A stretch of DNA of 64,000 nt from Methanomassiliicoccaceae archaeon (GTDB lineage Archaea; Thermoplasmatota; Thermoplasmata; Methanomassiliicoccales; UBA472): contig CAVVVD010000008.1 in NCBI GenBank assembly GCA_963751645.1, forward strand, positions 13,480-77,479, written 5' to 3'. Shown piece by piece: positions 23,574-25,519 of the stretch; position 1 is the stretch's first letter, and the number at the start of each line of letters is the position of its first letter. Under the pieces are notes generated by a model. That model was given only the letters and a program-made list of their open reading frames with translations, made no database searches and was not told where the DNA came from. The translations under genes and the position numbers were made by a program.

Positions 23574-24743
23574 ATGTTTCTGAGCAGGGATGAGGAAGAA
23601 ATCCTAGCCGGTGAAGGAGGACCGGGACAACAGAGGGCGATGGAGCTCTTGGTCGCCCTGGGAAGGATCTATGATGCCAAGCGATTGGTACCTATAACCT
23701 CCGCCCATCTGTCAGGCGTTTCATATAAGACGATCGGTGAGGGTGGGATCGATTTCCTCATCGAGATGTCCAGGGATTCGAAGGTCAGGGTCCCCACCAC
23801 ATTGAACCCCATGGGCATGGACGCTGAGCGATGGAGCGAGATGCGCATCCCCGAATCGTTCGCAAAAAGACAGCTGGTCATCATGGACCGGTATGCCGCG
23901 CTCGGCGTGAGCACCACCTGCTCTTGCACTCCGTACCTGACCGAGAACGTCCCTCGTCAAGGGGACACCATCGCATGGGCCGAATCCTCCGCACTTTCCT
24001 TTGCGAACTCGGTCCTGGGAGCAAGGACGAACCGCGAGGGCGGTCCAGGGGCCTTGGCCGCAGCGATACTGGGTCGGACACCTTGCTATGGCCTGCATCT
24101 CGACGAGAACAGGGCACCCACCGTGGTCGTGGAGGTCGAGGGGGTAGAAGGCATTTTCGACCATTCCCTGTTGGGTCATGCCGTCGGTCAGACCACTGGA
24201 GGCTCGGTCCCATATTTCCGTGGTATCGCCCCAGACAAGGACGAGCTTAAGATAATGGCCGCGGCGATGGCCGCGGCGGGCAGCGTGGCCTTGTTCCACG
24301 TGGAGGGGTCAACCCCAGAGAGCGAAGGACATGACCTCAAGGGATTGGATATGGTCCATATCGGGAGGAAGGAGCTCGACGAGGTACGGTCGAGGTTAAG
24401 CGTGGAGGAGGAGCCGGACCTGATCGCCTTGGGCTGTCCTCACCTATCCGTTAGGGAGATGAGGGAGCTCGCCTCGATCACCAAGGGAAGGAAGAGGTCT
24501 CCGAAGGTCGAGGTGTGGTTCTGCACCTCCCGAAGCACAGCCTCTCAATGCCCAGAGGAGGTGGCCGCTTTGAACAGGTTCGGTAAGGTGGTCTGCGACA
24601 CCTGCATGATAGTGGCACCGATAGAGGGGACGCACAGGGTGACGGCCACCAACTCGTGCAAGGCCTGCTCCTATCTTCCCGGGCTATGCTCTCAGAAAGT
24701 TATGTGCCGTTCCGCCCCTCAGCTTCTGGAGATGATATCCTGA
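23574..24743 (+). CDS. Aconitase X catalytic (DUF521) subunit; in archaea, phosphomevalonate dehydratase large subunit
   Basis: 389 aa. PITSAHLSGVSY, TTLNPMGMD, CSCTPY, AWAESSALSFANSVLGARTNREGG are the DUF521/AcnX pattern. It is followed by the DUF126 partner. Confidence 0.8.
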   Translation: MFLSRDEEEILAGEGGPGQQRAMELLVALGRIYDAKRLVPITSAHLSGVSYKTIGEGGIDFLIEMSRDSKVRVPTTLNPMGMDAERWSEMRIPESFAKRQLVIMDRYAALGVSTTCSCTPYLTENVPRQGDTIAWAESSALSFANSVLGARTNREGGPGALAAAILGRTPCYGLHLDENRAPTVVVEVEGVEGIFDHSLLGHAVGQTTGGSVPYFRGIAPDKDELKIMAAAMAAAGSVALFHVEGSTPESEGHDLKGLDMVHIGRKELDEVRSRLSVEEEPDLIALGCPHLSVREMRELASITKGRKRSPKVEVWFCTSRSTASQCPEEVAALNRFGKVVCDTCMIVAPIEGTHRVTATNSCKACSYLPGLCSQKVMCRSAPQLLEMIS

Positions 24744-25519
24744 TCCTACAGGGCAGGTCGATATCCCGGGGCAGGGCCGAGGGGAAGGCGCTGGTCCTAC
24801 GTTCTGCATTCAGTTTCCTTGGTGGCGTCAGCCCCCAGACGGGCCTGCTCACGATATCAAGCGGAAGGGAGGGAGAGCCATTGGAAGGGAGGGTCTTCGT
24901 GTTCTCCCGAGGGAAGGGAAGCACGGTGGGTTCCTACACGCTGCTCGATCTGAGGAAGAACGGACACCTCCCCTCAGCGATAATAAACGAGAGTGCAGAG
25001 ACGATCGTGGCTACAGGGGCGGTAATGGCATCGGTACCGATGGTGGACGGGATCGACATCTCCTTGATAATGGACGATGACCAGTTGGTGGTCGATGGTG
25101 CCGAGGGCACCGTGGAGATCGTGGATGTCATCTTGTCCGAGGTGGTGACCTGTGTCTTGCGCCATGAGGGCAAGGTCCTTGCCCTGAAGCGGAGCGACAA
25201 GGTCTCCACCAACAAGCTGAAATGGGCTGGGGTCAGCGGATTCATCGAGAAGGGCGAGCAGCCTTTGGAGACAGCCTACAAGGAGATCGCGGAGGAGACT
25301 GGGATCGAGGACCCTCAGTTGATCAAGATTGGCAAGACAGTGATGGTACGTTCGGAGGGCAGGATATGGAAGGTGCATCCCTTCCTTTTCGATGTCGGAT
25401 CTCCCTTGGTGACCATAGACTGGGAGCATACTGACCACAGATGGCTCGCCCCAAGTGACCTAGATAATATGGACGTGGTACCAGGGTTCCGAAGGTTGCT
25501 ATCGGACCTAGAACTATGA
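24686..25519 (+). CDS. Aconitase X swivel (DUF126) small subunit fused to a C-terminal Nudix hydrolase domain
   Basis: The N-terminal half (GRAEGKALVLRSAFSFLGGV...GRVFVFSRGKGSTVGSYTLLDL...P.AIIN) is DUF126. The C-terminal half carries a Nudix box GFIEKGEQPLETAYKEIAEETGI. The start is uncertain (24656 or 24686, or a non-ATG start near 24740); it overlaps the end of the large-subunit gene. Confidence 0.7.
   Translation: MLSESYVPFRPSASGDDILILQGRSISRGRAEGKALVLRSAFSFLGGVSPQTGLLTISSGREGEPLEGRVFVFSRGKGSTVGSYTLLDLRKNGHLPSAIINESAETIVATGAVMASVPMVDGIDISLIMDDDQLVVDGAEGTVEIVDVILSEVVTCVLRHEGKVLALKRSDKVSTNKLKWAGVSGFIEKGEQPLETAYKEIAEETGIEDPQLIKIGKTVMVRSEGRIWKVHPFLFDVGSPLVTIDWEHTDHRWLAPSDLDNMDVVPGFRRLLSDLEL

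Follow-up and report, generated by a model that had tools for sequence, protein, structure and literature searches.

A Nudix hydrolase domain fused to the small subunit of a predicted phosphomevalonate dehydratase in Thermoplasmata

In an archaeon from the order Methanomassiliicoccales, the small subunit of AcnX continues in frame into a Nudix hydrolase domain. This swivel-Nudix fusion is real and ancient. The same family of Nudix domains is also found alone or with unrelated partners, and it persists in genomes that have lost AcnX. We think that the Nudix domain is probably, though by no means certainly, an independent enzyme that became attached to the small subunit without becoming a step in the mevalonate pathway.

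The fused gene and its dehydratase partner

Within the window (the whole stretch of 64,000 nucleotides that we analyzed, from contig CAVVVD010000008.1), the large subunit of AcnX (DUF521) is encoded at 23574..24743 on the + strand (PF04412, E = 1.3e-145). The fusion gene lies directly 3' of it on the same strand, as the earlier note had stated. From its first ATG to its stop codon, the fusion ORF spans 24686..25519 (+) and encodes 277 amino acids without an internal stop; an alternative GTG start at 24656 is in the same frame. Amino acids 19-148 (24740..25129, +) form the AcnX swivel domain, which is the small subunit or aconitase domain 4, and amino acids 149-277 (25130..25516, +) form the Nudix domain. 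Pfam recognizes both: PF01989 (AcnX_swivel) matches amino acids 42-120 (E = 1e-25, 89.7 bits versus a cut-off of 27), and PF00293 (NUDIX) matches amino acids 154-270 (E = 2e-14, 54.1 bits versus a cut-off of 21.1). The Nudix domain also scores 183 bits with our profile of its family (A1). There is almost no linker between the two domains. The earlier proposal of a DUF126 swivel and a Nudix domain in one frame is therefore correct, with no stop or frameshift between the halves. An artificial join of two separate genes, through misassembly, a frameshift, or an overlooked stop codon, is refuted by the open frame at this locus and in dozens of independent assemblies, closed chromosomes included.

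The frame at 24686-25519 stands, but the ATG is probably not where translation begins. Homologues of the fusion protein are 256-260 amino acids long, and their start matches residue 19 of the ATG-initiated ORF. The codon at this position is CTG (24740), which overlaps the TGA stop codon of acnL (24741-24743) as CTGA, and a GGAG (24728-24731) lies 8 nt upstream of it. Also, residues 1-16 of the ATG-initiated ORF are disordered in the predicted model (pLDDT below 50). Because of these features, the start region is likely to be 24728..24743 (+), with CTG 24740 as the true start rather than ATG 24686. One homologue (P0002) has 277 amino acids and is 93% identical to the ATG-initiated ORF.

By sequence similarity, the AcnX pair is of the phosphomevalonate dehydratase type, which agrees with the earlier note. 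The best solved relative of the large subunit is AcnX from Thermococcus kodakarensis (7cnr_A, E = 8.5e-99), and the match to cis-3-hydroxyproline dehydratase is weaker (7d2r_A, E = 6e-58). In a Foldseek comparison, the predicted model of the swivel domain matched 7cnr_B at 50% identity (TM-score 0.93, rmsd 1.2). We predict that, as the small subunit of this dehydratase, the swivel domain pairs with the large subunit encoded upstream, and that the complex dehydrates (R)-mevalonate 5-phosphate, in a reaction that depends on an Fe-S cluster, to trans-anhydromevalonate 5-phosphate. The type II AcnX of T. kodakarensis (PDB 7CNR/7CNS; PMC8184944) has the same order of genes, large then small, but its small subunit stops after the swivel (~130 amino acids), whereas here a Nudix domain of 129 amino acids is added. 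Near-complete genomes of relatives contain all four of the UbiD-type decarboxylase, UbiX, IP kinase, and IDI2. The source genome is 59% complete, so it is unusable for calling absences; of these four proteins, only UbiX was seen in it.

Distribution of the fusion and of its Nudix family

All 28 of the sampled genomes from the same order contain the swivel-Nudix fusion, and it is also found in other Thermoplasmata. In these 28 genomes and in some others from the same class, the fusion is the sole member of the Nudix family. A search with a narrower alignment (A3) gave 80 best related loci, all from Thermoplasmatota, and in 59 of the 80 the swivel and the Nudix domain are in frame with no stop between them. 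Both domains are present in all of the best 120 of 811 homologues. We considered two long ORFs (669 amino acids in genome G024 and 551 in G063) as candidate triple fusions of large subunit, small subunit, and Nudix domain, but only a Nudix or a swivel domain was recognized inside them, and we attribute their length to over-extension in GC-rich DNA. A tree of 149 Nudix domains had too few columns to count the origins of each fusion. In the literature, we found no paper that describes an AcnX-Nudix fusion, that pairs phosphomevalonate dehydratase with Nudix, that links Methanomassiliicoccales with anhydromevalonate, or that connects Nudix to prenylated FMN and DMAP. The paper on the structure of AcnX (PMC8184944) does not mention the fusion.

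The presence of the Nudix domain is independent of the presence of AcnX. Two genomes, G024 (100% complete) and G161 (97% complete), encode a Nudix orthologue (E = 1e-43 and 3e-34 with profile A1) but lack both the large subunit of AcnX and a recognizable swivel domain. They have a decarboxylase of the MVD family in place of AcnX, and they retain UbiX and one UbiD. In both genomes, the Nudix domain is attached to the decayed remnant of a swivel.

Beyond AcnX, the Nudix family is diverse in architecture. Among its top 150 cluster representatives, 65 are stand-alone proteins, 29 are fused to an eIF-2B-like domain (the commonest form of fusion), and 11 are fused to the swivel; the rest include CinA, HAD, DUF6390, alpha/beta-hydrolase, and tandem-Nudix forms. 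In the eIF-2B-like fusions, the Nudix domain is N-terminal and its partner resembles eIF-2B or ribose-1,5-bisphosphate isomerase. Clusters with this architecture come from archaea, bacteria, and fungi, and HVO_1934 from Haloferax volcanii has the same architecture (PMC8576121), which is the basis on which we liken it to them. The motifs of the Nudix family are equally conserved in the swivel-fused, eIF-2B-fused, CinA-fused, and stand-alone members, which points to a single shared specificity.

The neighbors of the stand-alone orthologues show only lineage-specific synteny: with a PIN-KH ATPase; with UbiA, ADH, and thymidylate kinase; and one other group. The stand-alone gene of one marine lineage adjoins a UbiA prenyltransferase gene and has a geranylgeranyl-reductase-like (GGR-like) gene nearby. 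In family f28 (L016-L018 and L108), the order is acnL-acnS-X-Nudix, with the Nudix gene one gene downstream in the same cluster. Within about 4 kb of unfused acnS genes from 20 families, we found neither DUF89 nor Nudix.

The Nudix domain and its nearest relatives

The Nudix box (GFIEKGEQPLETAYKEIAEETGI, amino acids 185-207, 25238..25306, +) includes G185, E191, K199-E200, E203-E204, and G206. It fits the consensus GX5EX7REUXEEXGU except that K199 replaces the arginine, and lysine is usual at this position in the family. None of 49 fusion proteins differs at E203 or E204, and E200 is almost invariant among them. The box is thus intact, as the earlier note had it, and of the canonical hydrolase type. 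We predict that this half of the protein is an active Nudix pyrophosphohydrolase that depends on Mg.

Besides the box, the family, which is distinct and widespread, is marked by the motifs KRSxKVxTxxGKWAGVSG, HPFLF, and DWEHxxxxW. Comparisons of profiles and folds indicate that its nearest characterized relatives are Ap4A hydrolases and nucleotide pyrophosphatases of the NudI type, and not type 1 IPP isomerase (IDI1). Among solved structures, the family profile matches the Ap4A hydrolase of Plasmodium best (5CFI, E = 4e-13), followed by human NUDT2 (3U53), and it also matches 3GRN and NudI (Ap4A hydrolases and NudI together span E = 4e-13 to 1e-9). The predicted model shows the alpha/beta/alpha Nudix fold, and Foldseek matched its Nudix half to 3GRN, BdRppH, NudI, and Ap4A hydrolases (probability 1.0). 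The Ap4A hydrolases and NudI share the Nudix box, a C-terminal EHxxYxW motif, and a similar fold with the fusion Nudix, but they are only about 20-27% identical to it, and NUDT2 and NudI lack its KRSxKVxT, GKWAGVSG, HPFLF, and DWEH motifs. 3GRN is a MutT-related protein from Methanosarcina mazei that was solved by structural genomics. It is the best match to the single sequence (E = 1.4e-6) and has the best TM-score (0.85, rmsd 1.9), and its motifs LLRRSxxxRTxxGKW and YEHxEYxW resemble those of the family; however, it stands alone, is uncharacterized, and is 23% identical to the fusion Nudix. The Nudix fold in general is a poor guide to specificity.

Coenzyme A pyrophosphatases have the NuCoA motif LLTxR[SA]x3Rx3Gx3FPGG. 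The corresponding stretch in this family is LLLKRSxKVxTxKGKWAGVSG, in which FPGG is absent and the central arginine is not conserved, so we rejected this assignment. One CoA pyrophosphatase (1nqy) matches the profile weakly (E = 5e-7).

The basic KRSxK stretch and two invariant tryptophans suggest that the ligand is a nucleotide or a polyphosphate. The domain falls among generic nucleotide-type Nudix proteins (Ap4A hydrolases, NudI, and MutT-like proteins) and its family occurs in varied contexts, which is largely the outcome that the earlier note had named as evidence against its own proposal.

Possible roles of the attached domain

The earlier note suggested that the Nudix domain acts on an intermediate of the mevalonate pathway. 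The nucleotide-type relatives, the varied contexts and partners, and the survival of the domain after the loss of AcnX leave this idea unsupported. We favor an explanation in which the Nudix domain carries out a housekeeping reaction, of a nucleotide or phosphoribosyl type, that its orthologues also perform whether they stand alone or have other partners. An early ancestor of the Thermoplasmata would have joined it to the small subunit of AcnX, probably when a gene downstream was captured. The fusion may then have been hard to undo because, in the predicted model, the Nudix domain lies packed on the final strands of the swivel and may depend on them structurally. This model is rigid (pTM 0.80), and the last hairpin of the swivel runs straight into the first strand of the Nudix domain. 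On the other hand, a class-wide fusion with a near-zero linker is also expected if the two domains are functionally coupled, which counts against a passenger.

The most serious form of coupling, which we consider unlikely but worth keeping in view, is trimming: the Nudix domain would cut some diphosphate intermediate of isoprenoid synthesis back to its monophosphate and, tethered to the dehydratase, would serve for damage control or as an overflow valve. Candidate reactions are IPP to IP, DMAPP to DMAP, and the conversion of stray mevalonate 5-diphosphate or anhydromevalonate diphosphate to the monophosphate. Such a role would fit the conserved fusion and operon position, the acnL-acnS-X-Nudix clusters, and the UbiA and GGR-like neighbors of the stand-alone orthologue in the marine lineage. 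It also fits the retention of the Nudix domain where AcnX was swapped for a decarboxylase, because a pathway with the decarboxylase still contains IP, IPP, and DMAPP. There is a precedent in plants: PMC8248349 describes Nudix hydrolases that, with IP kinase, set the ratio of IP to IPP, and cites Henry et al. for plant Nudix enzymes that hydrolyze IPP or DMAPP. These act beside IP kinase as free cytosolic proteins, unlike the fused domain here.

Against trimming, the Nudix domain has unchanged specificity motifs in family members that are joined to eIF-2B-like, CinA, or HAD partners and in those that occur by themselves in unrelated contexts. Many AcnX-bearing lineages among the sampled genomes have no Nudix orthologue that we could find with profile A1. 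Furthermore, the closest characterized relatives are nucleotide enzymes, and the KRSxK stretch and the tryptophans hint at a nucleotide or a polyphosphate as the ligand. No prenyl-diphosphate Nudix hydrolase of the NUDX1 type was among the sequence, profile, or fold matches listed for the domain, and we know of no agreed sequence signature for these enzymes.

A second fusion bears on the same question. In P0364, the AcnX swivel is independently fused to a DUF89/ARMT1-like phosphohydrolase, which is unrelated to Nudix; this architecture is rare. AcnX small subunits have been fused at least twice to phosphohydrolases of unrelated folds, to Nudix across Thermoplasmata and to DUF89 in a rarer lineage. 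Our tentative suggestion, which we doubt slightly more than trimming as such, is that this reflects a need of the pathway for a tethered enzyme that returns over-phosphorylated or surplus intermediates to the monophosphate level. With similar reserve, its targets might be IPP or DMAPP, or else the diphosphates of mevalonate or anhydromevalonate if a promiscuous IP kinase makes them; such an enzyme would control damage or relieve overflow, and it might also be a source of DMAP.

It seems improbable that the task of the Nudix domain is to supply UbiX with dimethylallyl monophosphate, produced from DMAPP. The attraction of this idea is that the UbiD-type anhydromevalonate phosphate decarboxylase (AMPD) needs prenyl-FMN, which is made by a UbiX homologue (PMC12547664). 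Also, in three families that lack the Nudix domain (L111, L114, and L119), ubiX directly follows acnS, in the position of the Nudix domain, and the AcnX-less genomes with the Nudix domain keep UbiX and one UbiD. However, 185 of 201 sampled genomes have UbiX, and in the Nudix-less families no sampled genome is without it (f5, 3/3; f6, 8/8; f12, 16/16; f22, 15/15; f29, 25/25). UbiX is near-universal with or without the Nudix domain, and therefore the domain is not a general requirement for the supply of DMAP. The other fusion partners of the family have no link to prenyl-FMN.

We give equally little credence to the Nudix domain as a sensor or regulator, in which the dehydratase would respond, through a rigid interface between the domains, to the binding or hydrolysis of a nucleotide signal (Ap4A or ADP-ribose, for example). 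The rigid two-domain model and the resemblance of the profile to Ap4A hydrolases are compatible with this, and in aconitase-type enzymes it is the swivel that covers the active site upon closure (PMC8184944). But this Nudix domain also works by itself and beside quite unrelated proteins, and genomes that have lost AcnX retain it. Complete conservation of its catalytic residues is what an enzyme would show.

Isomerization of IPP, which the earlier note had raised, has virtually no chance of being the function. IDI1 does have a Nudix fold, and a fusion to an enzyme of the mevalonate pathway would make sense for it. Yet the domain has no match to the IDI1 family (TIGR02150) at E = 0.01, and IDI1 is not among the fold matches listed. 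IDI1 has a degenerate box and relies on catalytic Cys and Glu residues and on His residues as metal ligands, whereas the fusion Nudix has none of these residues and its box is the canonical hydrolase one; the position that we take to correspond to the catalytic Cys-x-His is Ser-Gly-Tyr/Phe in this family. Also, 29 of 30 near-complete relatives have IDI2 above the cut-off, adjoining IPK. The isomerase idea fails because of the lack of a match, the type of box, and the presence of IDI2.

Overall, the evidence favors a passenger enzyme, and this argues for caution in deducing pathway steps from gene fusions. The Nudix domain on a decayed swivel stub, left after AcnX was swapped for a decarboxylase, is a clean example of a fusion outliving one of its partners. 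A large uncharacterized Nudix family is now defined, with clear motifs and many partners, including Nudix/eIF-2B proteins of the haloarchaeal type. If the Nudix domain does turn out to be coupled to the dehydratase, then the archaeal mevalonate pathway, which is in use for isoprenoid production, would have an added step of control or repair, and the domain might explain the source of DMAP for prenyl-FMN.

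The fused gene and its start codon

The fusion is encoded by one open reading frame on the forward strand, which opens at GTG 24656 or ATG 24686 and has its stop codon at 25517-25519, and both the ORF listing and the translation are free of internal stops and frame changes. Counting residues from the ATG, Pfam places the AcnX swivel domain (DUF126, the small subunit of phosphomevalonate dehydratase) at aa 42-120, with 89.7 bits against a cut-off of 27, and the NUDIX domain at aa 154-270, with 54.1 bits against 21.1. The uninterrupted frame and the two domain matches confirm the in-frame DUF126-Nudix fusion proposed in the earlier note. 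The intact Nudix box holds up as well: aa 185-207 match the consensus, with R replaced by K. Immediately 5' is acnL, which encodes the AcnX large subunit (23574-24743, forward strand; PF04412, E = 1e-145). This subunit matches 7cnr_A from T. kodakarensis at E = 8.5e-99, versus 6e-58 for cis-3-hydroxyproline dehydratases. In the AlphaFold model of the fusion (pLDDT 89.6, pTM 0.80), the swivel half resembles the T. kodakarensis small subunit (7cnr_B; TM 0.93, rmsd 1.2, 50% identity).

Homologs are usually 256-260 amino acids long, and they start at residue 19 of this reading frame. The codon at that position is CTG 24740, which shares CTGA with the acnL stop and has a GGAG 8 nt upstream (24728-24743). 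Since residues 1-16 are also disordered in the model, the true start is probably the non-ATG codon at 24740, with ATG 24686 as a possible alternative; the overlap suggests that the CTG start is coupled to acnL. With CTG in the place of the relatives' start codon, gene callers extend the frame to ATG 24686, which adds 18 residues with predicted disorder in the model. Downstream, on the reverse strand, are a short-chain dehydrogenase gene (PF00106; 25719-26714) and a lone HNH endonuclease gene (PF01844; 26833-27549), neither of which is obviously connected with the AcnX operon.

Distribution of the fusion

The fusion is real and old, as indicated by database homologs, sampled genomes, and related loci. 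All of the best 120 of 811 database homologs contain both domains. In a sample of 200 genomes from the phylum, every genome of the same order (28/28) has one full-length fused copy, as do four genomes from other families of the class, and in all of these the fused copy is the sole member of its Nudix family. We also scanned one genome per species and examined the best 80 loci. In 59 of them, acnL is followed by the swivel and Nudix domains in frame without a stop; among them are records with the label Aciduliprofundum and loci from several Thermoplasmata lineages. Another 20 have a stand-alone Nudix gene without AcnX nearby, and in one the AcnX swivel and Nudix genes lie 988 bp apart. We did not find a paper that describes the swivel-Nudix fusion, and its database annotation is automatic only.

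A Nudix family with many partners

Stand-alone orthologs of the Nudix domain are 130-150 amino acids long and 45-63% identical. They mark out a sharply defined family, recognisable by KRSxKVxTxxGKWAGVSG, the catalytic box, HPFLF, and DWEHxxxxW. When 1.84 billion cluster representatives were searched with its profile, 319 proteins matched below 1e-30. The best 150 of these include 65 stand-alone proteins, 29 fusions to an eIF-2B-family domain, and 11 fusions to the AcnX swivel; other partners are CinA/PncC, a HAD phosphatase, DUF6390, an alpha/beta hydrolase, and a second Nudix domain. Family members also occur in records labelled [Eubacterium] cellulosolvens (P0135) and Dehalococcoidales bacterium (L104); mis-binning, contamination, or transfer may explain these contigs.

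The eIF-2B-family partner is nearest to ribose-1,5-bisphosphate isomerase, yet it scores under that family's cut-off. These fusions are about 440-455 amino acids long (P0210, P0216, P0221, P0225, P0304, P0336, and about 23 more), and the architecture is present in archaea, bacteria, and fungi. HVO_1934 from H. volcanii is annotated with it, with no function assigned (PMC8576121).

The signature positions are conserved to an equal degree across all architectures, which argues for a single specificity common to the family, rather than one specific to mevalonate intermediates. The exception is a fast-evolving family from the same order (f2), whose Nudix halves (L007, L008, L009, L011, and L012) score 52-95 bits against the profile versus 140-190 bits elsewhere. 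They keep the catalytic box, with KRS changed to HRP and DWEH to NxEN, which suggests an altered specificity.

In profile comparison, the nearest relatives of solved structure are Ap4A hydrolases (5cfi, 4e-13; human NUDT2), 3grn from M. mazei, which is itself uncharacterised, and NudI. The fold search concurs, and an EHxxYxW motif is common to the family and these relatives. The type 1 IPP isomerase IDI1 was not among the matches listed by the family-model or fold searches. Ap4A-type Nudix enzymes are said to turn PRPP into ribose 1,5-bisphosphate (cited in bioRxiv 10.1101/2019.12.22.886556). Such an activity would account for the eIF-2B-like partner, which we offer as a lead only.

Is the Nudix domain tied to the mevalonate pathway?

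Near-complete relatives with the fusion encode one UbiD-family decarboxylase, UbiX, isopentenyl phosphate (IP) kinase, and the type 2 IPP isomerase IDI2, a gene set known from the archaeal mevalonate route (PMC8791446, PMC12547664). The genome of the window is only 59% complete and is uninformative on this point. In relatives, IP kinase and IDI2 are encoded side by side (G056:C1:1427611-1429403; G167:C3:1109-2892; G113:C6:3598-5390), distant from both the AcnX operon and the UbiD gene. In another genome (G185:C4), a UbiD gene adjoins the AcnX operon.

Two genomes, G024 (100% complete) and G161 (97% complete), come from a family in which the fusion is present in the other genera. Both lack the AcnX large and swivel domains, and neither retains the AMPD-type UbiD copy adjoining AcnX in G185. 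Instead, they encode an MVD-family decarboxylase above the family cut-off (G024:C14:3281-4186; G161:C151:1041-1946), which AcnX-bearing relatives lack. This looks like a swap of the lower mevalonate pathway within one family. Both genomes retain the Nudix ortholog, and the match reaches into the swivel's tail (L013, G024:C8:84817-85371; L015, G161:C38:1077-1556). Similar database proteins are P0319, P0271, P0324, P0355, P0341, P0350, and P0333. The database proteins of this type keep every Nudix motif and have lost the swivel core motifs; of the swivel, just about 30 residues at its end can still be aligned (hhalign probability 100). The Nudix domain is therefore selected for independently of AcnX. 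The stub probably persists through its packing against the Nudix domain; in the model, the last swivel hairpin passes straight into Nudix strand 1.

Conversely, numerous lineages have acnL-acnS and no ortholog of this Nudix, and none of 20 unfused acnS loci from different families has a Nudix gene within about 4 kb, so the dehydratase does not require it. Stand-alone Nudix genes have different neighbors in different lineages, with no universal one. The earlier note had taken the fusion to suggest a role in the mevalonate pathway; across the lineages sampled, the Nudix domain is neither required by nor dependent on the dehydratase. Separately, three families without this Nudix have an acnL-acnS-ubiX cluster, with ubiX (prenyl-FMN synthase) immediately 3' of acnS (L111 2867-4982; L114 3555-5712; L119 3484-5608).

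The main rival is that the Nudix domain trims prenyl or mevalonate diphosphates, which we consider unlikely, although several observations fit it. Retention after the swap excludes only those roles that are bound to the dehydratase complex as such or to anhydromevalonate phosphate, and is consistent with a role on IP, IPP, or DMAPP, which are still present in the decarboxylase route. Plant Nudix hydrolases are reported to remove phosphate from IPP or DMAPP, opposing IPK (PMC8248349). In one family, acnL-acnS, a gene for a 298-aa protein of unknown function, and the Nudix gene form one cluster. (The intervening gene encodes a conserved protein of about 280-320 amino acids without a Pfam match and with a charged, coiled-coil-like N-terminus: L017 1962-2858; L018 4995-5837; L016 4909-5877.) In a marine lineage, the Nudix gene adjoins a UbiA prenyltransferase gene, and a GGR-like gene is nearby in a related locus. 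Finally, the database protein P0364 (524 aa; one cluster with 10 members, from a contig of 4 kb) joins an AcnX swivel (aa 24-103) to a DUF89/ARMT1-like "damage-control" phosphatase (aa 147-502). Here the small subunit is joined for a second time to a phosphohydrolase, of a fold unrelated to Nudix. In a variant of the rival, the Nudix domain would supply DMAP to UbiX; it is not generally needed for this, since UbiX is found in 185 of the 201 genomes, and no sampled genome from the families without this Nudix lacks it. The earlier note's other option, an isomerase, is rejected: of 30 near-complete relatives, 29 have IDI2 above the cut-off, and the domain itself is a Nudix of the hydrolase type.

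The evidence that is new here comprises the swap genomes, the vestigial-swivel proteins, the eIF-2B, CinA, and HAD architectures, the kinship to Ap4A hydrolases, and the DUF89 fusion. We somewhat favor a bifunctional protein whose Nudix half would be an independent nucleotide- or phosphoribosyl-type pyrophosphatase from an uncharacterised family, carried as a passenger on the AcnX small subunit. The Nudix gene would have been captured early in the Thermoplasmata, when it became joined to the AcnX small-subunit gene.
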